Of a stretch of 64,000 bases of DNA, positions 10,347 through 55,752 are shown piece by piece; the first letter of the stretch is position 1, and every line of letters starts with the position of its first letter. A model generated the notes under the pieces. It had not been told where the DNA came from and did no database searches. It worked only from the letters and a program-made list of their open reading frames with translations. The translations under genes were made by a program, and so were the position numbers. Origin of the DNA: Candidatus Multivoradales bacterium (GTDB lineage Bacteria > Acidobacteriota > Thermoanaerobaculia > Multivoradales > Multivoraceae); the NCBI GenBank assembly GCA_965223325.1, contig CBDCWI010000002.1, positions 4,384,001 through 4,448,000 of the forward strand, written 5' to 3'.

Positions 10347-10359
10347 GGCCAGAGGCGTC

Positions 10360-14890: not shown

Positions 14891-16491
14891 AGATCATTGA
14901 GGTCCCCTGGCGAGCTACCCACGCGGTAGCTTGCGAGCGGTAAAACAGAAACTCTTTTCAAGGAGACCTCGATGCGATTCTACAGCCGCCGCCACCGGCA
15001 CACCTGCGGTGTCGATCTACACGCCCGCAAGATGTACCTCTGCGTCCTCGACGGGAACTGCGAGAAGATCTACCACCGAAACATCCCCGCTCGGCCCGAC
15101 GCCTTCCTCGAGGCCATCGAACCCTTCCGAGACGATCTGGTCGTGGGTGTCGAGTGCATGTTCTCCTGGTACTGGCTCGCCGACCTCTGCGCCGAGGAGG
15201 GAATCGAATTCGTGCTTGGCCACGCCCTCTACATGAGCGCGATCCACGGCACCAAGGCCAAGAACGACAAGGTCGATTCCTACAAGCTCGCCGCCCTCCT
15301 ACGAGGCGGGACCTTTCCAATGGCCTACACCTATCCCAAGAAGATGAGAGCCGCGAGAGATCTCCTGCGCAGGCGCCAGTACTTCACACGCAAGCGCGCC
15401 GAGCTCTTCGTCCACATCCGCACCTCGAACACTCAGTACAACTGCGACGCCACCCTCGGCAGGATCGCCCGACCGTCGGACCACACGGATCTCCTCCATC
15501 ACTTCGATGATCCGTCAGCGAAGAAAAGTATCGACGCCAACCAGCGACTCATCGCTGCCTTCGACGAGGTCATCTCCGATGTCGAGAAGCACCTCCTCGA
15601 TCTGGCCAAGGACCACGAGCCCACCGTGCTCTCTCGCCTCACGTCGATCCCCGGCGTCGGTCCCATCCTCGGCATGACGATGCTGTACGAGATCGAAGAC
15701 ATCTCGCGATTTCCGACCGGTGCAGCACTTTGCTTCCTATGCCCGGCTGATCCGCCCACAGCACGAGTCCGCAGGCAAGCGAACCGGAAGCGGCCGCCAC
15801 AAGATCGGCAACCACCATCTCAAGTGGGCCTTCTCCGAAGCCGCCGTGCTCTTCGCCCAGCGCCAGGCTCACGGCAAGAAGCTCCTCGAGCGTCTCAAGC
15901 GCAAGCACGGCAAGACCAAGGCCTACGCTGTTCTGCGTCACAAACTCGGCCGTGCCGTTTACTTCATGCTCAAGAACAACGAAGCCTTCCACCTCCCGAC
16001 CTTCATGAACGCCTGACTCCGAGTCGGAAGCCTCGAGCCCTCCGCATAACTGGAACCACACGGCCCGATCTCATCCTTGGCGCTTCATTGGAGTCCCGGC
16101 TCCTGGTGCTTCGACACCCAACGCGCCCTGAGACCAACTGAGCCGGCAACCCGCGTGGTTGAATCGACGGGGCTTCCACTCACCTTCCAGCATTCGGTCG
16201 ATCTCGACCTCTGCCCCTCACCCGAGCCAGGCAACCAACTCCGGCGCGCTCCCGGGCGTGACCAGCACGGTTTGAATCGGACGGTACGAGGGCACCGATG
16301 TGTTTCTGGTCCGCTGGCCTAGGCCAGCAGTCGTCGCGATAGCGAGGACAGAGGCCCAATAGGTGTTTGGTGCAGAGGCTTCGCCTCGCACCCACTCTGA
16401 AACCAAAGTCAGAATTCGAGACTGATCGAAAACCGCCACGGACCTCGTCCGCTAGGAGACGTTTGCCTCTTGACGTCAGGGGACCTCATAG
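14891..16491 (+). mobile_element. IS110 family, IS1111-type element inserted in attC
   Basis: Sub-terminal 12-bp IR TGAGGTCCCCTG (14898-14909) / CAGGGGACCTCA (16477-16488); ~460-bp 3' non-coding region; no target duplication; ends are approximate. Confidence 0.82.
14972..16016 (+). pseudogene. IS110-family transposase with a +1 frameshift near 15720 (mutation or sequencing error)
   Basis: RuvC-like DEDD: GVDLH, VGVE, KNDKVD; SIPGVGPI; the frame continues as (V)QHFASYARL..HESAGK..GNHHLKWAFSEAA in ORF 15720-16016. Confidence 0.85.
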
Positions 16492-20459: not shown

Positions 20460-21500
20460 ATGTCACTCCCTGTGATCGGTTTGCCGGTCGACCGTCTCGG
20501 CCGCGGGCTCGATGACCTGCGTATTTCGGTCATCGATCGCTGCAATTTTCGCTGCACGTTCTGCATGCCGGCGGGGCACAAGTACGAGTTCCTGCGCCGC
20601 GAGCAGCTGCTCTCGTTCGAGGAGATCGAACGACTCGCGAGGCTCTTTGCGAGCCTCGGCGTTCGCAAGCTGCGCCTGACCGGCGGCGAGCCGCTCCTGC
20701 GTTCGGAGCTCGACAAGCTGGTGGCCATGCTGGCCGCAGTACCCGGCATCGAAGACCTGGCCCTGACCACCAACGGCCGGTTGCTCGAGGAGAAGGCGAG
20801 CGCCCTGGCGGCGGCCGGCCTTCAACGCGTCACGGTGTCGCTCGAGTCGCTCGACGACGCCACCTTCGCCAAGATCAACGGCGTCGGGCAGACGGTCGCA
20901 CCGATACTCGAGGGAATCGAAGCGGCCGCTGGTGCCGGTCTCGGGCCGATCAAGATCAACACGGTGGTCATGCAAGGCGTCAATGACCACGAGGTCGCTG
21001 ACATCGCTGGCTACTTCAAGGAGCGCGGCCACACCGTGCGCTTCATCGAGTTCATGGATGTCGGGACGGTCAACGAGTGGGACCTCGCCCGGGTCGTTAG
21101 TGCCCAGGAGATCGCAGAACGCTTGGCCGCCAGGTGGCCCCTCGAAGAGCTTCCACGCGAGCGCCCAGGCGCCACTGCGCTCCGCTACCGCTACACCGAC
21201 GACGGCACCGAGGTCGGCATCGTCGCGTCGGTCACCCAGCCGTTCTGCGGCTCCTGCGCCCGCGCGCGTTTGACCTCGGAAGGCAAGCTGTACAGCTGTC
21301 TCTTCGCCACCGAAGGGCTCGATCTCCGCGCTCCTCTGCGGAAAGGGGCAAGCGATGGGGAGATCCTGGCGCTGGTCCGCGAACGCTGGGCCGCTCGTCA
21401 GGACCGCTACTCCGAGCAGCGCGCAGCGTTGCTCGAGGGTGCCGGCGGGCGCGTCGCCGCGCCGCCACAGCGGGTCGAGATGTTCAGGATCGGCGGCTGA
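20460..21500 (+). CDS. moaA: GTP 3',8-cyclase
   Basis: DRCNFRCTFCMP radical-SAM motif, LTGGEPL, PFCGSCARARL..C, C-terminal IGG. Confidence 0.95.
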   Translation: MSLPVIGLPVDRLGRGLDDLRISVIDRCNFRCTFCMPAGHKYEFLRREQLLSFEEIERLARLFASLGVRKLRLTGGEPLLRSELDKLVAMLAAVPGIEDLALTTNGRLLEEKASALAAAGLQRVTVSLESLDDATFAKINGVGQTVAPILEGIEAAAGAGLGPIKINTVVMQGVNDHEVADIAGYFKERGHTVRFIEFMDVGTVNEWDLARVVSAQEIAERLAARWPLEELPRERPGATALRYRYTDDGTEVGIVASVTQPFCGSCARARLTSEGKLYSCLFATEGLDLRAPLRKGASDGEILALVRERWAARQDRYSEQRAALLEGAGGRVAAPPQRVEMFRIGG

Positions 21501-21556: not shown

Positions 21557-23557
21557 ATGTACGCCGAGTCGAACTCCACCGCACCTCCGGCGGACCCCCC
21601 AGCAGACCCTGAAACGCTGGCTGGGCTCGACGAGAGCGTCGAACGCGCCCAGCAGTTTCTCCTCGCCCAGCAGCGGCGCGACGGTCACTGGTGCGCGCAA
21701 CTCGAAGGCGACAACATCCTCGAGTCGGAGTACGCACTGCTCCTCTACTTTCTCGGGCGTGGTGACGAAGTCAAGATGCGGCGCCTGTGTGCCCAGCTTC
21801 GCGAGGCGCAGCTCGGGACCGGTGGATGGGCGATCTACCACGGCGGTCCGCCGGATCCGAACCCATCGGTCAAGTCATACTTCGCGCTCAAGCTCGCCGG
21901 TGACGACCCCGAAGCAGCGCACATGAAGAAGGCGCGCGACGCGATTCGCGGTTGCGGAGGGGTCGAGGCTTGTAACTCGTTCACCAAGCTCTACCTGGCT
22001 GTCTTCGGTCAATACAGTTGGAACAAGGCACCGGCCGTGCCGCCCGAACTGATCCGGCTCCCGCTGTGGTTCCCGATCAACATCTGGGAGATGTCGTCGT
22101 GGTCGCGGGCGATCGTCGTTCCGCTCTCGATCGTGTGGGCGCTGAAACCGCACTGCCCGGTGCCTCCGGGTCGTGGCATCGATGAGCTGCATACTCACCA
22201 GCGCGCCGCGGAACCTCTGTACCTCCGCCGCAACCGTCGTGTGTCAACTGCGTTCTGGGCAGGCTTCTTCAGGGTCGCAGACCGAGTCGTCAAGGCGGTG
22301 GAAGCGCTCGGCCTGCTGCGACCTCTCCGGGCAGGTTCGATCGCTCGTTGCCGTTCGTTCATCGAGCCGCGACTCGAGAAGAGCGCCGGCCTCGGGGCGA
22401 TCTTCCCTTCGATCCTGAATGTCGTACTGGCGTATCGAGCGCTTGGCTTCGAGCTCGATCACCCGGTCATCGCCAGCCAACTCAAAGAGCTCGAAGAGCT
22501 CGAGGTCTCGAACGGAGATGCTCTCAAGGTGCAGCCCTGCTGCTCTCCGGTCTGGGATACGTCGCTCACCCTCGCTGCCCTCCTCGACAGCGGCTTGCCG
22601 GCCGACCACCCGTCGTTCGTTCACGCGACGCGCTGGCTCTTGCGGCGTGAGGTCACTGAGGCCGGCGATTGGCGGATGAAGAACCCCGATGGCTCGGTGG
22701 GGGGCTGGTATTTCGAATACGCCAACGAGTTCTACCCCGACTGTGACGACACGGCAGAGATCCTCGCGGTGCTCGCGCGGGTGCACATCGAAGATCCCGA
22801 GCTCGAGGAGCGAGTGCGTGCTGCCGTTCAGCGAGCGCTCGACTGGCAGCTCTCGATGCAGAACGACGATGGCGGCTGGGGAGCCTTCGACAAGAACTGC
22901 GACCGGCAGCTCTTGACCCTGATCCCTTTCGCCGATCACAACGCCATGATCGACCCGAGCACTGCCGACATCACCGCGCGCACGATCGAGGCCCTTCGCG
23001 CCCAGGCTCTGCCCGCCGATCATCCGGCGATCGAGCGTGCTCTCAGGTTTCTGCGCCGCGCGCAGGAAAGTGATGGCGCCTGGTACGGGAGATGGGGTGC
23101 GAACTACATCTACGGAACCTGGTTGGCGCTTTCAGCTTTGTCGGCGGTGGGGAAGCGGGCGTTTGGCCCGGGGGCTTCGGTCGCTGCCCATCGCGGCGTC
23201 GGCTGGCTGCGCGGCTGTCAGAACGACGACGGTGGCTGGGGCGAGAGCCTGGCCAGCTACGATCGCCCCGAGGAACGCGGAGTCGGCGAGTCGACGGCGA
23301 CCCAGACCGCCTGGGCGATCATGGGGCTGGTGGCCGCTGGAGCCGCCGAACCAGAGAGCGACGCCGCGGCATCGGCCGACGCCGTTCGAAGAGGAGTCGC
23401 GTACTTGCTGCAAACGCAAGCGGCTGATGGCTCCTGGTGCGATCTTCATTGGACCGGCACCGGTTTCCCTGGAGTGTTCTATCTTCGCTACCACGCCTAC
23501 TCACACTATTTTCCCTTGCAGGCGCTCTCGATCTACCGCCGACTCGCGCGCGAGTAG
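21557..23557 (+). CDS. shc: Squalene-hopene cyclase
   Basis: YPDCDDTAE (DxDD) catalytic motif; QW repeats (QNDDGGWG, QESDGAWYGRWG); SPVWDT; TGTGFP..FYLRY. Confidence 0.95.
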   Translation: MYAESNSTAPPADPPADPETLAGLDESVERAQQFLLAQQRRDGHWCAQLEGDNILESEYALLLYFLGRGDEVKMRRLCAQLREAQLGTGGWAIYHGGPPDPNPSVKSYFALKLAGDDPEAAHMKKARDAIRGCGGVEACNSFTKLYLAVFGQYSWNKAPAVPPELIRLPLWFPINIWEMSSWSRAIVVPLSIVWALKPHCPVPPGRGIDELHTHQRAAEPLYLRRNRRVSTAFWAGFFRVADRVVKAVEALGLLRPLRAGSIARCRSFIEPRLEKSAGLGAIFPSILNVVLAYRALGFELDHPVIASQLKELEELEVSNGDALKVQPCCSPVWDTSLTLAALLDSGLPADHPSFVHATRWLLRREVTEAGDWRMKNPDGSVGGWYFEYANEFYPDCDDTAEILAVLARVHIEDPELEERVRAAVQRALDWQLSMQNDDGGWGAFDKNCDRQLLTLIPFADHNAMIDPSTADITARTIEALRAQALPADHPAIERALRFLRRAQESDGAWYGRWGANYIYGTWLALSALSAVGKRAFGPGASVAAHRGVGWLRGCQNDDGGWGESLASYDRPEERGVGESTATQTAWAIMGLVAAGAAEPESDAAASADAVRRGVAYLLQTQAADGSWCDLHWTGTGFPGVFYLRYHAYSHYFPLQALSIYRRLARE

Positions 23558-23606
23558 TCGAGTGGTTCAGCCACTGCCCTAGGTCCAGAAGACACAGGAG
23601 AGTTCG

Positions 23607-24608
23607 ATGCGTCTGCCGATGCACATCGCAACCGATCAGATCAAGAACCAGGTGCGCCAGCGCCTGCAGGGAAAGGAACGCTTTCCTTTTGTGTTGATGC
23701 TCGAGCCGCTCTACACCTGCAACCTCGCCTGTCTCGGCTGTTCGGTTGAGCGCCATACCGGCAAGCTGCGCGACCGCATGTCGCTAGAAGACTGTCTTGA
23801 AGCGGTCGATGTGAGCGGCGCTCCCACGGTGTCGATCTGCGGCGGCGAGCCCACCATCTACCCGGAGCTGCCGGAGTTGATCGCTGGCATCATCGAGCGC
23901 AACCGTCATATCTACCTGTGCACCAACGCGCTCCTTCTCGACACCAAGCTGTTCGGTGTGATTCCGCCGCACAAGCGGCTGACGGTCAATGTGCATCTGG
24001 ACGGCATGCGCGCCACCCACGATCTGGTCACGAACCGCGACGGTGTTTTCGACAAAGCGGTCGAGATGCTGGAGAAAGCGATCGCCCTCGGCTACCACAC
24101 GGCCATCAACATGACGATCTACCGCGAGACCTCAGTCGAAGAGGTCGAAGAGGTGTGCAACTTCGTTTCGAAGCTCGGGGTGCACAGCATTCTGATCTCG
24201 CCGGGCTACGAGTACGAGTCTGTCGGCCGTGACATCTTCTTGAAGCGTCGCGACACGGAAGTGAAGTTCGAGCGCATCCTCGAGATCGCCAAGCGCTACC
24301 GCCTGACGTCGACGCCAATGTTCTTGGAGTTCGCAGCCGGGCAGCGCGACTACGACTGTTCGCCCTGGAGCACAGTCACGCGCACTCCGCTCGGCTGGAA
24401 GGGGCCGTGCTATCTGATCGGCAAGAAGTTCTATGACACCTTCGAAGAGTTCTGGAACGAGACCGACTGGGAGTACTGGGAGTCGCGAGAAGACGACCTG
24501 TGCAAGAACTGCGCGATGCATTCGGGCTTCGAGGCCTCGGTGGTGCGAAACCTCCACAAGAGTCCTCGGGACATGATGAGGATTGCCGCCTGGCACATGT
24601 TCGGGTGA
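23607..24608 (+). CDS. hpnH: Adenosyl-hopene transferase (radical SAM)
   Basis: FPFVLMLEPLYTCNLACLGC, CGGEP, LCTNAL, CKNCAMHSGFE; adjacent to shc. Confidence 0.9.
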   Translation: MRLPMHIATDQIKNQVRQRLQGKERFPFVLMLEPLYTCNLACLGCSVERHTGKLRDRMSLEDCLEAVDVSGAPTVSICGGEPTIYPELPELIAGIIERNRHIYLCTNALLLDTKLFGVIPPHKRLTVNVHLDGMRATHDLVTNRDGVFDKAVEMLEKAIALGYHTAINMTIYRETSVEEVEEVCNFVSKLGVHSILISPGYEYESVGRDIFLKRRDTEVKFERILEIAKRYRLTSTPMFLEFAAGQRDYDCSPWSTVTRTPLGWKGPCYLIGKKFYDTFEEFWNETDWEYWESREDDLCKNCAMHSGFEASVVRNLHKSPRDMMRIAAWHMFG

Positions 24609-24621
24609 GCACCGTGGTGGC

Positions 24622-25638
24622 ATGACCGCACTGGTCACCGGCGGCACCGGGTTCGTGGGTGCACACATTGTGCGGGCGTTGCTCGCCGATGGGCAGGCGG
24701 TGCGCTGTCTGGTGCGTGCCGGGAGTGCGTGGGAGAACCTCGCGGGGCTCGACGTTGAGAAGTGTGAGGGCGATCTGGGTGATCTGGGTTCTCTCGCGCG
24801 CGCACTTTCAGATGTGCGGACTTTGTTTCACTGTGCCGCCGACTACCGTCTGTTCGCTCTTGATCCCACCGAGCTCTACCGCACCAACGTTCTGGGGACG
24901 CGCCAACTGCTCGAGTTGGCAGGGCGTCTGGGGGTCGAGCGGGTGGTCTACACGAGCTCTGTGGGTGCTCTCGCCGCGAGTGCCGATTCAGCGATCGCTA
25001 ACGAGGACACCCCGGTCGACCTGCACGACATGGTGGGTCACTACAAGCGCAGCAAGTACCTCGCCGCGCGAGTCGTCGACCATCTCGCGGCGCGCGGCCT
25101 GCCTGTGGTGACCGTTAGCCCCTCGACGCCAGTCGGTGCTCTCGACCGTCGCCCCACGCCGACCGGCCAGATTGTGGTCGACTTTTTGAATCGCCGCCTA
25201 CCGGCCTACGTCGACACCGGCCTGAACCTGGTCGATGTGCGCGATGTCGCGCGGGGTCATCTGCAGGCCGCCGAGCAGGGAACCGTTGGGCGCAACTACA
25301 TTCTCGGCTGCCTCAACCTGAGCCTGCGCGAGATGCTCGAGCGTCTTGGTCGAGTCACCGGCCTGCGGCCACCTCGAGTGCGCCTTCCGCACGTCCTCCC
25401 CATTGCCTTGGCCCGCTTCGATACCTGGCAGGCACAGAAGCGCGGCCTGAAGCCGCGAGTGAGTCTCGAGAGTGCCTTGATGGCCAAGAAGAAAATGTAC
25501 TTCGACTCAGAGCGGGCGATCTCTGAACTCGGCTTCAGGCAGACCCCGATCGACGATGCGCTCGAACAGGCCGCCACCTGGTATCGGCAGAACGGCTATG
25601 TCGAGCGTGGACCGCTTGCGCAGCGAGTTGCGCGATGA
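24622..25638 (+). CDS. hpnA: Hopanoid-associated NAD-dependent epimerase/dehydratase
   Basis: VTGGTGFVG, HCAADYR, GHYKRSK (YxxxK), PTPTG, YVDTGLNLV. Confidence 0.88.
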   Translation: MTALVTGGTGFVGAHIVRALLADGQAVRCLVRAGSAWENLAGLDVEKCEGDLGDLGSLARALSDVRTLFHCAADYRLFALDPTELYRTNVLGTRQLLELAGRLGVERVVYTSSVGALAASADSAIANEDTPVDLHDMVGHYKRSKYLAARVVDHLAARGLPVVTVSPSTPVGALDRRPTPTGQIVVDFLNRRLPAYVDTGLNLVDVRDVARGHLQAAEQGTVGRNYILGCLNLSLREMLERLGRVTGLRPPRVRLPHVLPIALARFDTWQAQKRGLKPRVSLESALMAKKKMYFDSERAISELGFRQTPIDDALEQAATWYRQNGYVERGPLAQRVAR

Positions 25639-26519
25639 CTGCGGAAGGAGAAGCCTGGGCGGAGGGAACGAGCGTCCTCCTGGGCGCCGTCCCGGAAGAG
25701 ATTGCCGGCCTGCGCGCCCTTCTGATCGAAGAGGATCGGCACGTTGGCCCGCGCGGGATGAAGCTTCGCCGGGGCACCATTCTCGGGCACCCCGTCGCCC
25801 TCCTCGCGACCGGAGAGGGAAGCCAGCGCGCGCATCGTGCCATGGAGTGGTTGGACGAAATCCTGCCCGAGGCTCCGATCCTGTTTCTCGGCGTGGCGGG
25901 AGGCCTCAGCGCGGCGCTCGCGCCGGGTGACCTGGTGGTCGGCGAGATGGCGCTCGAGTTTGGCGGAGATGCAACGTTTGAGAGTTTCGACCTCGCCAGT
26001 CGAGAGACCGCGGCCGCGCTTGGCCTTGGGGTCAGAAACCACGCGGCAGATGCGCTCGCTTCCGATTCCGGCCTGGCCGCTCCGGTCGGCCCGGCGGTTC
26101 TGGTGACTGTCGACTGGATCGTGACCGACTCGGTCGAGAAGACGCGCCTCTGGCAACGGGTCAGGAGATCCTTGGAGGAGACGGGAACCGAGGCTGGGGG
26201 CGAGCCCTACTGCACAGTCGACATGGAATCGGCCGCGGTCGCGCGTTGTGCGGCAGAGAGTAGCCGCCGGTTGCTCATCGTGCGTGCGGTCAGCGACTCC
26301 GCGGCCGAGAGTCTGCCGAGCTTTCTCAACCGCACGCGGCGCGCCGACGGCTCGATCAGCCGCTGGCGGGTTGCCGGCTACATGCTTTTGCTCTGGCCGT
26401 GGACCCTCTTTCGGGTACTGCACCTGCGGCAGCGCATGCGCCTTTGTTCGAGGCGGCTCACCGAGTTCGGTGTGTCCTGGCTTCAACATCGGGCGAAGTC
26501 CTCTCGCGGAGGCCTTTGA
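25635..26519 (+). CDS. Nucleoside phosphorylase/nucleosidase family protein (HpnG-like)
   Basis: GVAGGL..LAPGDLVV, VDMESAAVA, VRAVSD; context next to hpnH. Confidence 0.78.
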   Translation: MTAEGEAWAEGTSVLLGAVPEEIAGLRALLIEEDRHVGPRGMKLRRGTILGHPVALLATGEGSQRAHRAMEWLDEILPEAPILFLGVAGGLSAALAPGDLVVGEMALEFGGDATFESFDLASRETAAALGLGVRNHAADALASDSGLAAPVGPAVLVTVDWIVTDSVEKTRLWQRVRRSLEETGTEAGGEPYCTVDMESAAVARCAAESSRRLLIVRAVSDSAAESLPSFLNRTRRADGSISRWRVAGYMLLLWPWTLFRVLHLRQRMRLCSRRLTEFGVSWLQHRAKSSRGGL

Positions 26520-26598
26520 CCCCAGCTCGATTCGTGCCCTGGTCAGGGCCCTTTGGTGCCACGAGGAGGGCACCGGCGACTGTTAAGGTGCCAGGGCC

Positions 26599-27630
26599 AT
26601 GAACCCTGAAATCGCGGTCCGAGATCGCAAGGCCGAGCACATCGAACTGGCCCTGGATCCGCGCATGCAGGCCGAGGCCAACGCCTTTGCCCGCTATCGC
26701 TTCGAGCACAACGCTCTACCCGAACTCGACTTCGACGAGATCGATCTCGGCTGCACGATGTTCGGCCGTCAACTCACCGCGCCCCTGCTGATTTCGTGCA
26801 TGACGGGGGGGACCGAACAGGCCGCGGAGATCAACCGCAACCTGGCCGAGGCGGCGGAACGCGCGGGCGTCGCTCTGGGTGTCGGCTCACAACGCCTGGC
26901 GATCGAAGACGAAGCGCGCGTGGCGACGTTCGACGTGCGTGACATTGCCCCCTCCGTTCCGCTGATCGCCAACCTCGGTGCAGTGCAACTGAACTACGGC
27001 TACGGCCCGCAGGAGTGCCAGCGTGTGGTCGACATGATCAGCGCCGATGCGTTGGCACTTCATCTCAACCCGCTTCAAGAGGCCATCCAGCCCGAGGGTG
27101 ACCGCCGCTTTCGCGGGTTGCTGCACCAGATTGGCGACGTCGTCGAAGCGCTCGATGTGCCGGTGATCGTTAAAGAGGTCGGGTGCGGAATCTCTGCGGC
27201 GGTGGCACGTCGTCTGGCTCGAGTTGGTGTTACCTGGATCGATACCGCCGGCGTCGGTGGGACGAGCTGGGCTCGCATTGAAGCTGCGCGTGCTGCCGAT
27301 CGTGGGCTCGGCGAGACGTTTGCCCGGTGGGGGATTCCAACGCCCGAAGCAATACGGCAGGTGAGTGGGGTCGCGGGTGTCGGGGTTATCGGTAGCGGTG
27401 GCCTGCGTTCCGGTCTCGATGCCGCGATCGCGCTGGCGCTAGGAGCAGACTACGTCGGTCTTGCCTATCCTTTCCTCGGGCCGGCACAGCAGTCGGCGGC
27501 GGCGGTCGAAGAGGCGATCGAGCGACTGAAGGTGGAGCTTCGCATCGCGATGTTCTGTGTTGGTGCTCGTTCGCTGAGCCAGCTGCGAAGAGCGATTCTG
27601 TTTCACGATGGTGCTGAGGTTGCGAGATGA
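26599..27630 (+). CDS. fni: Type 2 isopentenyl-diphosphate delta-isomerase
   Basis: RKAEHI, MTGG, GVGSQR, IANLG, HLNPLQE.IQPEGD, KEVGCG, GGTSW. Confidence 0.93.
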   Translation: MNPEIAVRDRKAEHIELALDPRMQAEANAFARYRFEHNALPELDFDEIDLGCTMFGRQLTAPLLISCMTGGTEQAAEINRNLAEAAERAGVALGVGSQRLAIEDEARVATFDVRDIAPSVPLIANLGAVQLNYGYGPQECQRVVDMISADALALHLNPLQEAIQPEGDRRFRGLLHQIGDVVEALDVPVIVKEVGCGISAAVARRLARVGVTWIDTAGVGGTSWARIEAARAADRGLGETFARWGIPTPEAIRQVSGVAGVGVIGSGGLRSGLDAAIALALGADYVGLAYPFLGPAQQSAAAVEEAIERLKVELRIAMFCVGARSLSQLRRAILFHDGAEVAR

Positions 27631-28898
27631 GCACTTCGGAAGAGTCCCGTACGAACAAGACACAAGCCACCCGTCAAGAAAAGGGCGAGGCGGAGACGGT
27701 CGACGAGATCAAGTCTGGATCAAGGGGCCTTCATCAACTGCCGCGTGGCCTGGCCGCGGCCGAAGCGGCGGCGCTCAGGCGTCGAGTCGCCGAGAGCTCG
27801 GGAGCGTCAGAGCTTCGGCACATCGCTTCCTACTCTCTCGACGACGAGCGGGCGTCAACGCGTAACTGCGAGAACTTCATCGGTGCTGCCCAGGTGCCGA
27901 TGGGGCTGGTGGGCCCGCTCCACGTCCGTGGTCGCGAGATCGACGGCGAGACCTTCGTCCCCCTGGCGACCACCGAGGGAGCGCTGCTCGCCAGCGTCAA
28001 CCGGGGTTGCCGGGCCATCGCCCGATCGGGCGGGGCGGCGGTCGACGTGGTGGACGTTGGTATGACGCGTGCGCCAGCCTTTCGGGTTCATGACCTGACG
28101 GCAGCTCGCCGCCTCACCAACTGGCTCGAAGAGAACTACGCCCGCATCAAGGAACACGCCGAAGCGACGAGCCGGTTTCTGGAACTCGTCGAGCTACGCC
28201 CGATCATCATTGGCACAACGGTCCTCATTCGTTTCCGATTCACCACCGGCGACGCGATGGGCATGAACATGGCGACCATCGCGTGCGACCGGGTCGTCAC
28301 CGAAATCATCGAGCCCGAAACCGGTGCCGAATGTGTCGCCCTCTCCGGCAACTACTGCGTCGACAAGAAACCCTCGGCGGTCAATTTTCAACTCGGACGC
28401 GGCAAGAGCATTCGCGCGGAAGCAGAGATTCCTGCCGATGTACTCGAGAAGACGCTCAAGACCACTGCTTCGTCGCTGGTCGAAGTTCAGGTGCGCAAGA
28501 ACTTCGTGGGCTCGATCGCCGCGGGGGCGATGGGCTACAACGCGCAGTTCGCCAACGTGCTTGCCGGTCTGTTTCTCGCCTGTGGGCAGGACCTGGCGCA
28601 TGTCGTAGAAGGTTCGATGGGGATAACGACCTTCGAAGAACGAGAGGCCGGTGCAGTGCACGCGGCCGTCTACCTGCCCGACTGTCCAGTGGCGGCTATC
28701 GGTGGTGGCACTTCGCTCGCGACCCAACGCGAGGCACTGTCGATTCTGGGTATCGCGGTCGATGAAGAGCGGCCCGGGACGGCGGCGATTCGGCTCGCTG
28801 AGATCACCGGTGCGGTCGTTCTGGCCGGCGAGCTTTCTCTCATGGCGGCGTTCACCTCGCGCGACCTGGCTCGTGCCCACGAGCGCCTGGGTCGCTGA
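27627..28898 (+). CDS. hmgA: Class I (NADPH) HMG-CoA reductase
   Basis: CENFIG, PLATTEGALLAS, TGDAMGMNM, LSGNYCVDKK cis-loop, GRGK, VLAGELSL, C-terminal AHERLGR. Confidence 0.93.
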   Translation: MSTSEESRTNKTQATRQEKGEAETVDEIKSGSRGLHQLPRGLAAAEAAALRRRVAESSGASELRHIASYSLDDERASTRNCENFIGAAQVPMGLVGPLHVRGREIDGETFVPLATTEGALLASVNRGCRAIARSGGAAVDVVDVGMTRAPAFRVHDLTAARRLTNWLEENYARIKEHAEATSRFLELVELRPIIIGTTVLIRFRFTTGDAMGMNMATIACDRVVTEIIEPETGAECVALSGNYCVDKKPSAVNFQLGRGKSIRAEAEIPADVLEKTLKTTASSLVEVQVRKNFVGSIAAGAMGYNAQFANVLAGLFLACGQDLAHVVEGSMGITTFEEREAGAVHAAVYLPDCPVAAIGGGTSLATQREALSILGIAVDEERPGTAAIRLAEITGAVVLAGELSLMAAFTSRDLARAHERLGR

Positions 28899-28904
28899 CG
28901 GCTG

Positions 28905-30074
28905 GTGACGAACGGCGCTGGGAAACGAAGCGTCCGCTGGTCGGCTCCCGGCAAGGCGATATTGATTGGCGAGCACGCAGCTGTCTATGGACGACCCGCA
29001 TTGGTGGTCGCCGTCGGGCTGCGGACCGAGGTTACGGCTCGAACGACGGGTGACGGCAAGGGGATCGTGACGCTCGAAGTGCCGCAGCTCGAGGCGCGAT
29101 CGGATAGTTCGCCATCAGATAGCCAGCGCGAACCGGTCCGTTGGGCCGAGCTGGCCGCCATGGGAGCCGAAGTGTCTTCACGTTGGCAGCTCTACAATCG
29201 AAGCGAAGTGCCGATCTCTGCAATCCTCGGCGAGACCTTGTTGCCCCAAGCGATCCTGGGTGTTGTCGCCCACTGGTTGGGAGAATTGCCCAGTGTCTCT
29301 CTGCGGCTTCGGGTGGCTTCCGAACTTCCCATCGGTGCCGGACTGGGCAGTTCGGCTTCAGTGGCTGCAGCAATGGTTGCCGCGACGCTCGACGCAATCG
29401 ACGTGACGGTGCCCGCGGCGGAGGTCGAGGCACTCATTCTCGAGTGTGAGCGTCTACAGCACGGCCACCCTTCCGGAATCGATGCCGCCGCCGTCCTGCG
29501 CGGCGGAGCTTTGGTCATTCGACGGGAAACGCCGGCGCAGGCCGATCAACCTCTGGAGCTGGAAGTCGAGGTCCTCGATGTAGACGAGGCGGCGTTTCGT
29601 GGGTTTCGGTTGTTCGACACCGGTCGCCCACCCGAGAGCACCGGCGAGGTCGTGACCGCAGTGCGCGAGCTTCGGTCGCGAGACGTTGAGGCGTTCGATG
29701 ATGAACTGCGGCGGGCAGAAGACGCGGCGCTGGCGATGCTCGATGGGTTGCGGCGCGCTGAGTCGTCAGACGGCGGGGCTGTCATCGCCACCGCGATGCG
29801 CGTCTTCCAGAGGTGGCTCGAGGGCATCGGCGTGGTTCCGGCCGAGATTGCTACGCTCATCGCGAAGCTCGAGGCACGAGGCCTGGCGGCCAAGATCTCG
29901 GGAGCCGGATCCCTGGTAGGCCCTGGCGCTGGCTTGGCTCTGGTCTACGACGCGGGTCGGTCTCCGAGGTCCGCTTCGGGCAGTCGCTGGTGGCATGAGT
30001 CCTGGACAGAGATCGAGGCGCCCCTCGGCGCCCCTGGTCTTTGCCGCCACCCAGCCGACATTGCCGAGGCATGA
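28905..30074 (+). CDS. mvk: Mevalonate kinase
   Basis: APGKAILIGEHAAVYG, PIGAGLGSSAS, HGHPSGID, AKISGAG. Confidence 0.88.
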   Translation: MTNGAGKRSVRWSAPGKAILIGEHAAVYGRPALVVAVGLRTEVTARTTGDGKGIVTLEVPQLEARSDSSPSDSQREPVRWAELAAMGAEVSSRWQLYNRSEVPISAILGETLLPQAILGVVAHWLGELPSVSLRLRVASELPIGAGLGSSASVAAAMVAATLDAIDVTVPAAEVEALILECERLQHGHPSGIDAAAVLRGGALVIRRETPAQADQPLELEVEVLDVDEAAFRGFRLFDTGRPPESTGEVVTAVRELRSRDVEAFDDELRRAEDAALAMLDGLRRAESSDGGAVIATAMRVFQRWLEGIGVVPAEIATLIAKLEARGLAAKISGAGSLVGPGAGLALVYDAGRSPRSASGSRWWHESWTEIEAPLGAPGLCRHPADIAEA

Positions 30075-30075
30075 G

Positions 30076-31119
30076 ATGAAGAAAGACACCGAACGCGCGA
30101 CGGTCGAAGCGCCGTCGAACATCGCTTTCGTCAAGTACTGGGGAGCCAAGAATCTGGAACGGGTGGTTCCCTACAACCCTTCGATCTCGATGACGCTCGA
30201 AGAAGCGGTGACTCGCACGACAGCGGTCTTCCACCGCGGCGAGGACGGCGAGGACGTCGTCTCGGTACGCCAGGGCAACGACGTCGTGGACCCGGGGAGT
30301 GGGTTCACCGAGCGGGTTACGAATCACATCACCCGTCTGCGCGAGGTGTTTGGCGTGCGCGGCTGGTTCGAGATCGAGACCCGGAACACCTTCCCGTCGG
30401 CTGCTGGTGTGGCGTCTTCAGCATCGGGCTTCGCGGCGCTGACCCTGGCGGTCGCGAGTGCCACAGGGCAAACGCTCGATCGCGTCCAGTTTTCTCGGCT
30501 GGCGCGTGCGAGCGGTTCGGGATCGGCGTCGCGCTCGGTCATGGGTGGCTACGTGCAGTGGCCGGGCGACGGCCAGGACGATGACGCAACGTATGCAGTA
30601 CAGCTCTTTGACGGTGACTACTGGTCGCTGTGTGACTTGATTGCCATCGTCGACACCGATCCCAAGGACGTCTCGTCTCGCGACGGTCACCTGCGTGCCG
30701 CTTCGAGTCCCTACTTCAAGGAGCGTCTGCGCAGTTTGCCGGCGCGTCAGGCAACGGTTCGACAGGCGATCGCGGATCGTGCGATCGAGAACCTCGGCCC
30801 GGTGGTCGAAAAAGAAGCAATCGACATGCACCTGATCGCGATGTCGTCAGCGCCTCCGATCTTCTACTGGTCTCCGGCGACCCTCGCAGTGCTCGCGGCA
30901 CTGCGAGATCTGCGGGCTTCGGGTCTCGAAGCGTGGGCAACGATGGATGCCGGTGCCAACGTGCACGTCATCTGTGAGCCGTCGGAAGCCGATCGCATCC
31001 AGGAGGAGTTGCGCGGGGTTCAGGGTGTTCTCCGTGTGCTGCGCGATCGAACCGGCAAGGGGCCGCGGGTGCTCGAAAGCAGCGCTCCAGAAGAGCCAGA
31101 CACGGAAGAACTCGGGTGA
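30076..31119 (+). CDS. mvaD: MVD-family decarboxylase (probably mevalonate-5-phosphate decarboxylase)
   Basis: APSNIAFVKYWG, SISMTL, GVASSASGFAAL, GSGSASRS, TMDAGANVH; substrate specificity inferred from context. Confidence 0.88.
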   Translation: MKKDTERATVEAPSNIAFVKYWGAKNLERVVPYNPSISMTLEEAVTRTTAVFHRGEDGEDVVSVRQGNDVVDPGSGFTERVTNHITRLREVFGVRGWFEIETRNTFPSAAGVASSASGFAALTLAVASATGQTLDRVQFSRLARASGSGSASRSVMGGYVQWPGDGQDDDATYAVQLFDGDYWSLCDLIAIVDTDPKDVSSRDGHLRAASSPYFKERLRSLPARQATVRQAIADRAIENLGPVVEKEAIDMHLIAMSSAPPIFYWSPATLAVLAALRDLRASGLEAWATMDAGANVHVICEPSEADRIQEELRGVQGVLRVLRDRTGKGPRVLESSAPEEPDTEELG

Positions 31120-31126
31120 TTTCGGC

Positions 31127-31951
31127 ATGAGCAGATCTGCTTCGAAGGTCACAGTGGTCAAGCTCGGCGGCAGCTTGATCACCGACAAGGCCACCCGGCG
31201 GTCGGTGCGCGAAGAAACCCTGGCGCGACTTGCCGGTGAGGTCGCCGAAGCGCTCCCGGAGCTTCGTCGTCGCGGGACGCAGGTTCTCCTCAGCCATGGC
31301 AGCGGTTCTTACGGTCATATGGCAGCGCATTCGGTTGGTTACGAGAAGGGGCGGGTGATGACTGGCGGTGCGGGTGTCGTTCAGCGCGCCGCGGCAGAGC
31401 TCCATGGCCGCGTTCTCGATGCGTTGCTCTCGAGAGACGTGCCGTGTTTCAGCTTTGCGCCTTCGAGTGCCTTCGTTGCCGAGGGTGGAACCGCCCGTTC
31501 CATCGAACTGCGCCCACTACTCATGGCGCTAGAGGCGCAGCAGGTCCCGGTCACCTATGGCGATGTTGTGCTCGACGAGCACTCGGGCTGGACGATTCTG
31601 TCGACTGAAGAAGTGGTCACGGCGCTGGTCTCGGCAATCACCTCCGAGAGGGCGACGCCCGTCGAGGTTCTGTGGATGGGTGATGTCGACGGCATCCTCG
31701 ATGGGGGTGGAGAAGCGGTGCCGGTTGTTGACGACCGCAACGCGGAGGCCGTCGCTGCTGGCCTCGGTAGCGCGAGCGGCACCGATGTTACCGGTGGCAT
31801 CAAGCTGCGCTTCGAGACAGCACGCCGGCTGGCCGCCCGCGGTGTTCCTTCTCATCTCCTCGATGGCACACGCCCGGGCCTTCTGCGTGAGGCGCTTCAT
31901 GGCGCGGCAGTCGGCGGCACCAGATTCGTGAATGCAAAGGGCGCATCTTGA
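31127..31951 (+). CDS. Isopentenyl phosphate kinase (amino-acid kinase fold)
   Basis: KLGGSLITDK, HGSGSYGH (IPK-type His), PVTYGDVV, DVDG, DVTGG. Confidence 0.88.
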   Translation: MSRSASKVTVVKLGGSLITDKATRRSVREETLARLAGEVAEALPELRRRGTQVLLSHGSGSYGHMAAHSVGYEKGRVMTGGAGVVQRAAAELHGRVLDALLSRDVPCFSFAPSSAFVAEGGTARSIELRPLLMALEAQQVPVTYGDVVLDEHSGWTILSTEEVVTALVSAITSERATPVEVLWMGDVDGILDGGGEAVPVVDDRNAEAVAAGLGSASGTDVTGGIKLRFETARRLAARGVPSHLLDGTRPGLLREALHGAAVGGTRFVNAKGAS

Positions 31952-32853
31952 GCGCTGATCTCCATGACCTCTTGGTCAAGACGAGTCGCACTTTCGCCCT
32001 CTCGATTCCTCGTCTCGGCGGGTCGCTGCTGGACGAGGTGCGCGTGGCCTACTTACTCCTTCGTATTGCCGACACGTTCGAAGACGCTTACCGCTGGTCG
32101 AAGGCGCGGCGTGTCGATGCCCTCTCTGAGTTCTCGGGTCTGTTCGAGAAGCCGGATCGGTCGAGGGCGGAGGCGGCCTCTAGTCGGTGGCTGGCCGATC
32201 CCGAGCCGACCGACCACGAGGGCTACACCGAGCTGCTCGCCGCCGCACCAGATGTGTTGTCTGCGCTCGACGCGCTCCCCGAGCCGAACCGTCGTGCCAT
32301 ATGCGCCCATGTACGGCGCACCGTCGCGGGAATGGTGGAGTTCGTCGATCGCACCGACGACGCCGGCAACCTGACTCTCCGCGACGTCGAGGACCTGCGC
32401 GCCTACTGCTACGTCGTAGCGGGGATCGTCGGCGAAATGCTCACCGACCTCTTCGTTCTTCATGATGATGCCCTCCTCGTGGTGGCCGACGAGCTCCGCG
32501 CTCGGGCGCCGACCTTCGGCGAGGCTCTGCAGTTGGTCAACATCACCAAAGACGCCCTGGCCGATGCCGGCGAGGGGCGCACCTTCCTGCCGCCTCAGAT
32601 CGATCGCAAGGAGATCTTCGAGATCGCACGCTCTGACCTCGAGACGGCGGCAGAGTACGTTCGCCTGCTCGAAGGCGCGGGAGTTCTGCGTGGCCCAGTC
32701 GAGTTCTGCGCCCTACCGGTGCTGCTCGCGCGCGCTACCCTCGACGAGGTCGAGCGACACGGCCCGGGCGCCAAGGTAGCGCGTGATCGCGTGCTGCGAG
32801 AAGTCGCCGCGCTCGATCGCCGGCTCGAGCACGGCGAGCCGGCCCTGGCGTAG
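31948..32853 (+). CDS. Squalene synthase (squalene/phytoene synthase family)
   Basis: KTSRTFALSI, RIADTFED, YCYVVAGIVGEMLT, LQLVNITKD; TTG start overlapping the IPK stop. Confidence 0.85.
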   Translation: MSADLHDLLVKTSRTFALSIPRLGGSLLDEVRVAYLLLRIADTFEDAYRWSKARRVDALSEFSGLFEKPDRSRAEAASSRWLADPEPTDHEGYTELLAAAPDVLSALDALPEPNRRAICAHVRRTVAGMVEFVDRTDDAGNLTLRDVEDLRAYCYVVAGIVGEMLTDLFVLHDDALLVVADELRARAPTFGEALQLVNITKDALADAGEGRTFLPPQIDRKEIFEIARSDLETAAEYVRLLEGAGVLRGPVEFCALPVLLARATLDEVERHGPGAKVARDRVLREVAALDRRLEHGEPALA

Positions 32854-32862
32854 GATCTGGCG

Positions 32863-33513
32863 ATGGCGACAAGTACCGTCGAGGACTACCTCAAGTGCAT
32901 TCTGCAGCAGGCCGGCGATGATCAACTCGTCGGCATGGGCGCGATCGCCAGTGCCCTCGATGTGGCGCCGGGAACAGTCACGGCGATGATGAAGACACTT
33001 TCAGACTCCGGCCTTGTGCACTACGAGCCCTACAGCGGCGTACGCCTCACCGAGCCGGGCCGAAAGCTCGCGGTGCATGTTCTGCGTCGCCATCGCCTGC
33101 TCGAGCAGTTCCTCGTCCAGATCGTCGGGCTCGACTGGGCGTACGTGCACGAGGAAGCAGAGCATCTCGAACATGCCGTATCGGAGCGTCTCATCGAGCG
33201 GATTGACGAGATGCTGGGCTATCCCTCGGTCGACCCACACGGCGACCCCATTCCGGATGCTCGCGGGCGCGTCGAGAACGTCGACCTACCGAATCTGGTC
33301 GACTGCGACATCGGCGTTCCGCATACCGTCGTGCGCGTATCTGAACAGAGCGCTGCGTTTCTCGGCCTGCTCGACAGTGGTGGCCTGCGGCCGGGCGTTC
33401 TGGTTGAGGTGGCCAAGCGCGACTCCGAAAGAGTCGACCTGCGTGTGCGTGACGGCGAGCCGTTCGTCCTGGCGGCCGACGCCGCCCGCCAGGTCCTGGT
33501 TCGAGCCTGCTAG
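32863..33513 (+). CDS. DtxR/MntR-family metal-dependent regulator with FeoA domain
   Basis: VEDYLK, GTVTAMMKTL, RRHRLLE, HEEAEHLEHAVS, DPHGDPIP. Confidence 0.92.
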   Translation: MATSTVEDYLKCILQQAGDDQLVGMGAIASALDVAPGTVTAMMKTLSDSGLVHYEPYSGVRLTEPGRKLAVHVLRRHRLLEQFLVQIVGLDWAYVHEEAEHLEHAVSERLIERIDEMLGYPSVDPHGDPIPDARGRVENVDLPNLVDCDIGVPHTVVRVSEQSAAFLGLLDSGGLRPGVLVEVAKRDSERVDLRVRDGEPFVLAADAARQVLVRAC

Positions 33514-33857: not shown

Positions 33858-34586
33858 CTACCGAGCCGGCACGGTGCCGCTCCAGAAGCCCGTGTCCTCG
33901 GATTCGAACCCGTCGACGAAGAGTGCACAGCGAAACTCGAAGGTGCCCAGGGGCGGTGTCCCCCCGAGTGGGCCGGTTGTGATGAGGTGGATGATGTCTT
34001 GCGGCATGGTCTCTTGATTGCCCGAGGTGAAACTTTCCCCGCTGTCTGTTCCGGCGTCCCAGGCGACCAGAGAGACGGTTGGCGAGAGCCAGCCCGTGGC
34101 GTCGCGAAGCGCCAGGGCGGTCACGCCGACGAACCAGTCGGGGCTCGGAGCAATCATCGACACGAGGGTGACGTAGGGGTGTGACACCTCGAGGTCGAAG
34201 CTCATGGTGACTTCGCCGGGCGACGTGCCGATGCCGCCTCCCGAGAGAACGGCCAGGGCCGTGCCGCTGGTAATCGCACTTTCGACCTCGTCCTGGAGGT
34301 CTCCTTTGGCGCCCTGCTCCGCCATTCTCTGTGTGCCCAGTGAGGCGAAGCCACCGGGCTCCCAGAACGACACTTGATCGTTATGGCTGCCGCCGATCAA
34401 GCCGGAGAAGTGTGGGTTGGGCGGGAACTCCTCGGGGTGGGTGGCTGCGCTCCAGGTGGCCGCGAAACGCACCGAGCACTCAGTGCCGGATTGTGCCCCA
34501 GCGGCAACAGGGAGTACGAACAACAAGATGGCGGCAACGAGCGTGGTGAGGAAGACCCCTCGTGCGATGGTTCTGATGTAGCTCAT
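33858..34586 (-). CDS. Secreted spondin-N domain protein with C-terminal FxDGFE motif
   Basis: HFSGLIGGSH, SMIAPSPDWFVG, WDAGTDSG; signal peptide; tail LFVDGFESEDTGFWS. Confidence 0.85.
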   Translation of the reverse strand: MSYIRTIARGVFLTTLVAAILLFVLPVAAGAQSGTECSVRFAATWSAATHPEEFPPNPHFSGLIGGSHNDQVSFWEPGGFASLGTQRMAEQGAKGDLQDEVESAITSGTALAVLSGGGIGTSPGEVTMSFDLEVSHPYVTLVSMIAPSPDWFVGVTALALRDATGWLSPTVSLVAWDAGTDSGESFTSGNQETMPQDIIHLITTGPLGGTPPLGTFEFRCALFVDGFESEDTGFWSGTVPAR

Positions 34587-34669
34587 CGCCCTATGGTGGC
34601 ATGAAGCTCCGCTCGTTGGCATGGAGAGTCCGAGCCTGAGGTCTTTGGCTGCTGGAGCGGGGTAGTCTG

Positions 34670-55548: not shown

Positions 55549-55752
55549 TGAGGTGGGCTTTCTTGGCGGCACGTCGAGGCACAGACTCGAGGTCAGGTTC
55601 GGGACTCAGTGTTCCATGAGGCCTGCGCGGGGTGCATCCATCACGAGTGCGCCGCCGCGCCACCACACCCGGGAACAACGCGTCGCGTTGAGGAGGTGTT
55701 TGGAGCGGATCTGCTTACGCATGTTCAGTGTGGCCGCGGACTTTGCTCGGGA

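Follow-up and report, generated by a model that had tools for sequence, protein, structure and literature searches.

A gene row in Candidatus Multivoradales joining hopanoid biosynthesis to a predicted decarboxylate-first mevalonate pathway

Introduction

Among the closest described systems to the one considered here are two mevalonate (MVA) pathways that employ a phosphomevalonate decarboxylase (PMD, also called MPD) and an isopentenyl phosphate kinase (IPK). One is the alternative pathway of Chloroflexi, known from the MPD and IPK of Roseiflexus castenholzii (Dellas et al. 2013, PMC3857490), and the other is that of haloarchaea, known from the PMD and IPK of Haloferax volcanii (VanNice et al. 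2014, as cited in PMC9254496 and PMC6107057). In 2022 the haloarchaea-type pathway was placed in halophilic archaea and "some Chloroflexi bacteria" (PMC9254496). Here we describe a row of ten genes at positions 21557-32853 of a 64,000-nucleotide stretch, called the window below, from a Candidatus Multivoradales bacterium (assembly GCA_965223325.1, contig CBDCWI010000002.1, positions 4,384,001 to 4,448,000). In our view this row is quite probably a lineage-typical acidobacterial arrangement, in which a hopanoid module is joined to a mevalonate module running from mevalonate kinase (MVK) through PMD to IPK that would supply all isoprenoids of the cell, including the hopanoids.

In bacteria, the methylerythritol phosphate (MEP) and MVA pathways usually exclude each other (Hoshino and Gaucher 2018, PMC6107057). 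MEP genes were reported for all 31 cultured acidobacterial genomes considered by Sinninghe Damste et al. (2017, PMC5462960). The same authors described a metagenome-assembled genome (MAG) from acidobacterial subdivision 22 (SD22) with shc, hpnH, a squalene synthase (SQS)-like gene and "most" MVA genes; in the legend to their Figure 7, MVA genes are listed with those mapped to the cluster, and the authors concluded that bacteriohopanepolyols (BHPs) may be made there "in a rather different way" (PMC5462960). An earlier note, made from the letters of the window alone, had considered the gene arrangement as uncharacterised. This has to be corrected insofar as the arrangement was already glimpsed, as a sketch for the SD22 MAG, in 2017; the PMD/IPK route, however, went unrecognised in the accessible text of that paper (PMC5462960). 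In the literature we searched, Chloroflexi are the sole bacteria credited with this route, and no paper describing it in Acidobacteriota was found, with the limit that subscription papers and supplements may hold more, and a 2025-26 preprint on hopanoid origins makes no mention of mevalonate. New here are the host lineage and the genomic setting of a known pathway.

Results

All ten genes of the row lie on the + strand, in the order shc, hpnH, hpnA, hpnG-like, fni, hmgA, mvk, MVD-family decarboxylase (mvd), ipk and SQS-like gene (sqs). Open reading frame (ORF) calls, start choice, and Pfam and NCBIfam profile searches, with bit scores compared to curated cut-offs, confirmed every one of the co-oriented genes listed in the earlier note, at the same coordinates or a few codons off. 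Junction spacing ranges from -4 to 79 bp. Overlaps of 4 bp occur at three of the nine junctions (hpnA/hpnG-like, fni/hmgA and ipk/sqs) and the other six have gaps of 1-79 bp, so that to speak of many 4-bp overlaps, as the note did, was slightly generous. The G+C content is even across the cluster (0.64-0.66). Six genes pass the cut-off of their specific model (shc, hpnH, hpnA, fni, hmgA and ipk), and the MVD-family gene passes that of the diphosphomevalonate decarboxylase (MDD) model. The MVA genes are physically joined to the genes for SQS, squalene-hopene cyclase (SHC), HpnH, HpnA and the HpnG-like protein, and probably joined transcriptionally as well, possibly in a single transcript.

The mevalonate module (fni-hmgA-mvk-mvd-ipk-sqs) is predicted to lead from HMG-CoA to isopentenyl diphosphate (IPP) and dimethylallyl diphosphate (DMAPP), and from farnesyl diphosphate (FPP) to squalene. 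Mevalonate would be formed by HmgA (27627..28898), an NADPH-dependent HMG-CoA reductase (HMGR) of class I, the class given in the earlier note: the class-I model TIGR00533 is passed (447.4 vs 441.8 bits) and the class-II, degradative model TIGR00532 is failed (40.2 vs 259.95). MVK (28905..30074, 389 aa, PF00288) would then give mevalonate 5-phosphate. Its match to TIGR00549, at 154.9 bits, is a marginal miss of the cut-off (163.05) and by far its best family match. The MVD-family enzyme would act as an ATP-dependent phosphomevalonate decarboxylase yielding isopentenyl phosphate, which IPK (31127..31951) would convert into IPP. The sequence supports this identity of the kinase. It passes the IPK equivalog model NF040647 (146.9 vs 120), its best solved relative is the IPK of Methanocaldococcus jannaschii (3k4o, 105.6 bits), and in the alignment to 3k4o the motifs KLGGS..DK, HGSGSYGH (with the GH histidine), DVDG and DVTGG are in register and kept. 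The catalytic residues of the M. jannaschii enzyme are K6, G8, G9, K15, G54, H60, D213, T215 and G216 (Table 2, PMC3857490). Isomerization to DMAPP would fall to Fni (26599..27630), a type-2 (FMN) IPP isomerase (IDI) that passes TIGR02151 (394.4 vs 281.3). Chain elongation would be carried out by synthases encoded elsewhere, before the SQS-like enzyme makes squalene.

The decarboxylase (30076..31119; PF22700 and PF18376; TIGR01240 217.1 vs 171.35) is the enzyme on which the order of reactions depends, and we read it as a PMD. Among solved structures it comes closest to 6n0x/6n0y (239.9 bits); the best classical MDD, that of E. faecalis, reaches 175.9 bits. The 6n0x/6n0y chain is the PMD of Anaerolinea thermophila (PMC9254496). 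Six phosphate-site positions are compared in Table 4 of Dellas et al. (2013), where Lys21 of the S. epidermidis MDD is conserved in all listed MDDs (PMC3857490). The window enzyme has Tyr21, Ala24, Val30, Ser148, Ser150 and Ser201 at these positions, with Ala24 in the place of the lysine that contacts the terminal phosphate. We collected 80 loci encoding the closest relatives of the decarboxylase (48-58% identity; many of the loci are cut by contig ends). The lysine position is occupied by Ala in 73 of them, Val in 3, Thr in 2, Gly in 1 and Ile in 1, and by Lys in none. The catalytic Asp291 and Arg153 are kept in the window enzyme and in 80/80 of these loci, which argues for a decarboxylase and against a mevalonate-3-kinase-like enzyme. 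The loss of the MDD lysine fits the decarboxylate-first route proposed in the earlier note, and the enzyme likely prefers mevalonate 5-phosphate, i.e. it would act as a phosphomevalonate decarboxylase.

Gene neighbourhood points in the same direction. An IPK gene starts at most 600 bp downstream of the decarboxylase gene in 75 of the 80 loci. Among the five exceptions, two loci end too soon (L049 and L057), one has its IPK gene 5 kb away (L043) and two have none within 10 kb (L009 and L084). A contrast set of 17 loci with a downstream ORF was fetched by a Lys-containing motif; both sets were hence chosen by residue, and the quantity counted is the neighbour. In this contrast set the next ORF is best matched by phosphomevalonate kinase (PMK) in 15/17 loci (12 over cut-off), and the other two by UppS and MVK. 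Two side observations concern these neighbours. The L009 locus, from a Thermoanaerobaculia MAG, holds a hopanoid-MVA row lacking ipk, with sqs directly after mvd, no room for ipk between them, and no ipk elsewhere in the 21-kb locus. A natural fusion of an AA-kinase (IPK-like) with an MVD-family protein also exists (P0132, 608 residues), on only two contigs; in it, Phe and Arg replace the Tyr and Lys of MDDs, and three MVK-MVD fusions keep Lys.

The genome that contains the window (6.69 Mb, two contigs, 98.2% complete) gave no match for Dxr, IspG or IspH, each of whose models matches in 9 of 14 control genomes. Genome-wide, PF00288 is found in four genes, named by NCBIfam as homoserine kinase (thrB) and galactokinase (galK), besides mvk and mvd in the window. 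Because these are the only GHMP kinases of the genome, it encodes neither IspE nor a GHMP-type PMK. The statement that there is only one GHMP kinase and no PMK, made for the window, also holds for the whole genome, and the search for MEP and PMK genes that the earlier note had suggested (Dxr, IspG, IspH, IspE, PMK) returned no match in it. As none of these gave a match in a 98.2%-complete assembly, the cell very probably has no source of IPP other than this cluster, and with no MEP pathway found the route would supply all isoprenoids, hopanoids included. As the note had stated, the window lacks genes for HMG-CoA synthase (HMGS), thiolase and FPP synthase. Elsewhere in the genome an HMGS-like gene stands alone (C2:2997734-2998807), and two polyprenyl synthases are likewise encoded outside the window.

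The SQS-like gene (31948..32853; PF00494, 113 bits vs 26) encodes a head-to-head prenyl synthase that we read as squalene synthase. Its NCBIfam matches rank as TIGR01559 (one-step squalene synthase, 90.9 bits), HpnD (48), CrtB (40.2) and HpnC (32.5), and its best solved relative is human SQS with 56.4 bits, against 26.1 for CrtM. The TIGR01559 match covers residues 6-221 only and does not reach the cut-off of 286.75. The Asp-rich motifs DTFED (at 42) and DALAD (at 202) align to those of human SQS, and for the last 80 residues no solved SQS gives an alignment. The genome has no other PF00494 member and therefore holds no hpnC/hpnD or crtB alternative for squalene formation.

In the hopanoid module (shc-hpnH-hpnA-hpnG-like), squalene would be converted into hopene or diplopterol and then, by addition of a C5 ribosyl-derived side chain, into C35 bacteriohopanepolyols. 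SHC (21557..23557; PF13243 and PF13249) passes TIGR01507 with 639.6 vs 431.1 bits and has at residue 395 the motif DCDDTA, the protonation motif (DXDDTA) of such cyclases. HpnH (23607..24608; Radical_SAM and DUF3463; TIGR03470 365.3 vs 225), the radical-SAM adenosyl-hopene transferase for the C35 side chain, carries the CxxxCxxC motif as CNLACLGC at residue 38. HpnA (24622..25638; TIGR03466 436 vs 367.65) is a hopanoid-associated short-chain dehydrogenase/sugar epimerase; the match to its model opens at residue 14 of the ORF that begins at 24583, i.e. at the ATG at 24622. The fourth gene (25635..26519; PF01048, 84 bits) encodes a purine nucleosidase/phosphorylase of the PNP_UDP_1 family. The HpnG model TIGR03468 is not passed (84.5 vs 187.1, with a match in two stretches). 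The gene keeps its place behind hpnA in five related loci (L230-L234) with 31-37% identity, and we retained the name HpnG-like because of the PNP_UDP_1 fold and this conserved position. The enzyme is presumed to release adenine from adenosylhopane.

The 80 decarboxylase loci belong to Acidobacteriota (75, mostly Thermoanaerobaculia, with Holophagales and Ca. Multivorans), Rhodothermota (3, Longimonas and a relative), Ca. Schekmanbacteria (1) and Streptomyces (1). The guess of the earlier note that the DNA came from an acidobacterium is in line with this: the closest relatives of the cassette are acidobacterial, mostly from Thermoanaerobaculia. According to tblastn (at least 50% query coverage), mvd is present in 80 loci, ipk in 76, mvk in 73, hmgA in 64, sqs in 59 and fni in 57, compared with 7 for hpnG-like, 4 for hpnA, 3 for hpnH and 2 for shc. 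From these counts, the MVA cassette together with the SQS-like gene is the common unit. We also analysed 41 genomes, namely the window genome and 40 related ones from its genus, family or order. IPK is over cut-off in 34 of them, Dxr in 17, PMK in 0 and SHC in 24; within the family of the window genome, SHC is over cut-off in 21/24 genomes. The window genome and 18 others have IPK over cut-off in the absence of Dxr. Both are over cut-off in 15 genomes (G004, G005, G011, G016-G024, G028, G033 and G035), where the MEP and MVA routes seem to coexist. Orthologues of the SQS-like gene occur in 36/41 genomes, including 11 of the 16 in which no SHC was found, and usually directly after ipk. Its product may have a role beyond hopanoids, or may not be squalene.

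The row moaA-shc-hpnH-hpnA-hpnG-like-fni-hmgA-mvk-mvd-ipk-(sqs)-mntR recurs in at least five genomes with 31-73% protein identity. These are one of the same genus (G001), three of the same family (G007, G009 and G018) and one of another family (G028); the genomes of G018 and G028 have Dxr, in G018 sqs is not in the row, and the locus of G009 and locus L085, having the same gene order, were counted once. Rather than being peculiar to this genome, the hopanoid-MVA arrangement is typical of its lineage, and the MVA cassette is found widely among Acidobacteriota. In G011 and G024 the order is moaA-fni-hmgA-mvk-mvd-ipk-mntR, with SHC encoded elsewhere. Read most simply, these gene orders place the hopanoid module between moaA and an MVA cassette that was already present, by insertion here or by loss elsewhere.

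Phylogenies of the decarboxylase were inferred with FastTree (184 rows) and, under a mixture model, with IQ-TREE (85 rows). FastTree recovered an acidobacterial clade of 22 rows (support 98), none with Lys, and its well-supported branches require the Lys state to have changed at least 8 times. In IQ-TREE a split with support 99 separates a classical Lys/Met clade (Firmicutes and others) from everything else; the acidobacterial clade (99, SH-aLRT) and an Anaerolineae clade (98) are both on the non-classical side. The deep topology of FastTree, which placed the Anaerolineae with the classical Lys/Met clade, was dropped, as the mixture model did not reproduce it. A tree joining the acidobacterial and Anaerolineae clades lies 19.46 log-likelihood units above the free (short) search, with p-AU 0.782, and these sequences neither show nor reject a common origin with the Chloroflexi PMDs. 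In both analyses the decarboxylases of Longimonas, Schekmanbacteria and Streptomyces nest inside the acidobacterial clade. Since these hosts belong to three other phyla, this suggests that the MVA cassette has been transferred between phyla.

As for the gene orders in these phyla, the three Rhodothermota loci (L067, L076 and L081) have hmgA-mvk-mvd-ipk and the Schekmanbacteria locus (L077) has mvk-mvd-ipk. The Streptomyces locus (L084) has hmgA-mvk-mvd with a non-Lys enzyme (Ile) and no IPK gene within 10 kb; the ORFs flanking it gave no family matches and are probably wrong frames in high-G+C DNA. Some Anaerolineaceae MAGs hold a Lys/His MVD-family protein (P0130 and its cluster) beside the Asn/His type typical of Anaerolineae, so that several kinds of MVD-family enzyme may exist in Chloroflexota.

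The gene row runs past the limits given in the earlier note, as two further co-oriented genes are syntenic in relatives. Upstream, moaA (GTP 3',8-cyclase; 20460..21500, + strand; TIGR02666 379.1 bits vs cut-off 284) ends 56 bp before shc. It stands upstream of shc or fni in L085, L023, L056, L230-L233, L235 and L236, and is a conserved flank outside isoprenoid chemistry. Downstream, a gene for an mntR/dtxR-like metal-dependent repressor (32863..33513, + strand; PF02742, PF01325 and PF04023; NF047407 181.5, below its cut-off) follows the SQS-like gene after 9 bp, and this conserved flank is syntenic in L230, L231, L233, L235 and L236. Promoter and terminator scans were of no use for operon limits: there were 0 promoter-like sites vs 1.3 +/- 1.2 in shuffled sequences, and 11 terminator-like sites vs 8.4 +/- 2.5.

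Other features of the window are mentioned for completeness. An IS3-type integrase gene (12678-13595, - strand) and an IS110-type transposase gene (14972-16138, + strand) lie 5-9 kb upstream of the cluster, in a stretch with a G+C content of 0.61 vs 0.64-0.66 and several ORFs lacking family matches. Two long ORFs on opposite strands, 33858-35498 (-) and 34670-36730 (+), overlap by about 830 bp. One, of 546 aa, has a Spondin_N domain (138.9 bits) and the other, of 686 aa, has weak glycosyltransferase-like matches; at most one of them is readable in full as annotated. The window also encodes a Ste24-like CAAX prenyl protease homologue (Peptidase_M48_N and M48; 10183-11625, + strand) and an Rce1-like CPBP protease homologue (54604-55572, - strand). 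Both families are common in bacteria, and their sharing the window with an isoprenoid cluster is probably a coincidence. A PEP_mutase-family gene (236 bits), which may act in phosphonate metabolism or encode an enzyme of the methylisocitrate-lyase type, lies at the window edge (659-1480, - strand).

Discussion

Every part that can be tested in the sequence came out in favour of the earlier note's proposal that this organism would make C35 hopanoids through an alternative MVA route: no match for MEP or PMK genes, conserved IPK motifs, and loss of the MDD lysine. Several observations nevertheless weigh against it. The window decarboxylase departs clearly from the MDD pattern at only one of the six phosphate-site positions (Lys to Ala), Tyr21 and the three serines being kept. 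At the position of S. epidermidis Ile27, where PMDs have Arg, it has Val30. An arginine, Arg29, is adjacent, and position 29 is Arg in 48/80 and Lys in 6/80 of the related loci; the arginine at the Ile27 position itself is Arg83 in R. castenholzii and is also found in haloarchaea (PMC3857490). The Ala and Thr replacements at Ser139 and Ser192 of the Chloroflexi type are likewise absent, Ser148, Ser150 and Ser201 being retained, and haloarchaeal PMDs also retain the first two serines (Table 4, PMC3857490). The haloarchaeal PMD model NF040704 is not passed (146.7 vs 475) while the MDD model TIGR01240 is, and public annotation names the whole clade diphosphomevalonate decarboxylase. The scores of hpnG-like, mvk (marginally) and the SQS-like gene lie below curated cut-offs, L009 and L084 lack a neighbouring IPK gene, and the order among the acidobacterial, Anaerolineae and several Lys/His clades is left unsettled by IQ-TREE. 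The PMK searches also have limited power. The Gram-positive PMK model TIGR01220 had 0 matches in the window genome and was over cut-off in 0/14 control genomes. The animal-type model PF04275 gave no match in the genome, but also none in any control genome, so that this result is uninformative, and a non-homologous PMK may exist elsewhere in the genome.

Two markers were considered for telling PMD from MDD and then rejected. The NCBIfam names do not discriminate: an Anaerolinea-type homologue (L141) with 438.5 bits against the crystallised A. thermophila PMD passes the MDD model (TIGR01240, 262.7) and fails the PMD model (NF040704, 207.4). For TIGR01240, Firmicutes MDDs score 405-415 bits and the acidobacterial set 209-224, with the window enzyme at 217.1. 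His205 had first been taken as a PMD marker because the Lys and His positions are the two at which the deposited variant 6n0z departs from 6n0x; it was given up, as His accompanies Lys in 41 of the 184 family rows.

The identical gene content would be expected if the chemistry were classical, with the AA-kinase-family "IPK" phosphorylating mevalonate 5-phosphate and the MVD-family enzyme being an ordinary diphosphomevalonate decarboxylase. That Tyr21 and all three serines at the diphosphate site of MDDs are retained, and that TIGR01240 is passed, would suit this explanation. We consider it very unlikely, given that the kinase is over the IPK equivalog cut-off with its catalytic motifs kept, including the GH histidine, and that the MDD lysine is lost in 80/80 members of the clade. 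To our knowledge, no PMK activity of this kind is known in the AA-kinase family. The pathway could also be classical by means of an unrecognised PMK encoded elsewhere, IPK then serving only in isopentenyl phosphate salvage or regulation, as has been suggested for plants and CPR bacteria with IPK next to a complete classical set. In its favour, other organisms have IPK alongside classical enzymes (Dellas et al. 2013, PMC3857490; Hoshino and Gaucher 2018, PMC6107057), and the PF04275 search had no positive control. However, none of the four GHMP kinases in a nearly complete, two-contig genome is a PMK, PMK is over cut-off in 0/41 genomes, IPK is encoded directly behind the decarboxylase in 75/80 loci, and the MDD lysine is lost; the chance that such an enzyme accounts for the data appears very small indeed.

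Another possibility is that the row does not work as a unit. The product of the SQS-like gene might be dehydrosqualene or presqualene diphosphate, or the hopanoid genes might be silent, and the link between MVA and hopanoid genes would then be positional. In agreement with this, the SQS-like gene is far under the SQS equivalog cut-off, the last 80 residues of its product are unaligned to solved SQS, and its orthologues in 11 of 16 relatives with no SHC found imply a role not tied to hopanoids. On the other hand, the genome, which retains an intact SHC including the catalytic motif, has no other PF00494 gene, the best family and solved relatives of the SQS-like protein are squalene synthases and not CrtM, CrtB or HpnD, and in at least five further genomes, with protein identities of 31-73%, the hopanoid and MVA modules lie side by side. 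We regard a merely positional link as highly improbable. A joined hopanoid and mevalonate row using the MVK, PMD and IPK sequence, in which squalene would be made and hopanoids produced, agrees best with these data.

If this route is confirmed, a large branch of Acidobacteriota would use decarboxylate-first MVA as its standard way of making isoprenoids, and the pathway would extend beyond haloarchaea and Chloroflexi. As proteins, the enzymes are unremarkable representatives of known folds. Acidobacteriota are among the most abundant phyla of soil and sediment. Hopanoids would here derive from acetyl-CoA via mevalonate and not from pyruvate and glyceraldehyde 3-phosphate, which matters for the interpretation of compound-specific 13C and 2H values of hopanes. 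From the class-I HMGR one would expect sensitivity to statins, and from the missing Dxr insensitivity to fosmidomycin. The relatives with both pathways would constitute a natural series for the replacement of one essential pathway by another. The route would also contradict the working rule that Acidobacteria use MEP (PMC5462960). More tentatively, and in our view less likely than not, the acidobacterial decarboxylases could be a third, separately derived PMD lineage, in which the change consists of Lys to Ala with the serine triad kept. They would then be part of a transferable cassette (PMD and IPK, class-I HMGR, type-2 IDI and the SQS-like gene) that is displacing MEP across an acidobacterial order and has been joined to hopanoid genes in the family of the window genome. 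That displacement might be in progress is suggested by the 15 of 41 sampled genomes that hold both routes. A sizeable share of soil and sediment hopanoids would, in that case, have a mevalonate-type isotope signature.

Among classical systems, the mvk-mvd-pmk(-fni) operon of Firmicutes is alike in using GHMP enzymes for the first two steps and in often having a type-2 IDI next door. It differs by a decarboxylase with Lys and Met at the two markers and TIGR01240 scores of 405-415 bits vs 217 here, and by PMK as next gene in 15/17 loci. The MVA cassettes of Streptomyces sit beside terpenoid biosynthetic genes and use PMK and a classical MDD. They resemble the present row as precursor-supply cassettes joined to the genes of one terpenoid end product, and the coexistence of such a cassette with MEP has its parallel in the 15/41 relatives where the MVA cassette occurs together with Dxr. 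In the window genome, by contrast, the cassette is not accessory, since MEP was not found there. The SD22 MAG can be likened by description; unlike the present analysis, the accessible text of the paper gives no IPK, no decarboxylate-first route and no account of the missing PMK (PMC5462960).

The haloarchaeal system has the same proposed order of reactions, and its PMDs, too, keep the GSGS-loop serines and have lost the lysine (Table 4, PMC3857490). The host here is a bacterium, and the window enzyme, compared via that table and the model NF040704, scores 146.7 vs 475. With the alternative pathway of Chloroflexi, the locus shares MVK, a non-Lys MVD-family decarboxylase and IPK, and the lack of PMK and MEP; in several Chloroflexota loci IPK and MVK genes also adjoin the decarboxylase. 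The label "archaeal/Chloroflexi-type" used in the earlier note can therefore be kept for the reaction order, which fits. It does not hold for the proteins: HMGR is class I here vs class II reported for Chloroflexi (Hoshino and Gaucher 2018, PMC6107057), and the decarboxylase, only 37-45% identical to Chloroflexota homologues, belongs to a separate clade (99% SH-aLRT); it carries Ala24 where those have Asn or Leu, lacks Arg at the Ile27 position and retains the full set of three serines. Finally, in this acidobacterium the genes form one tight row, probably an operon, joined to those for hopanoid biosynthesis.

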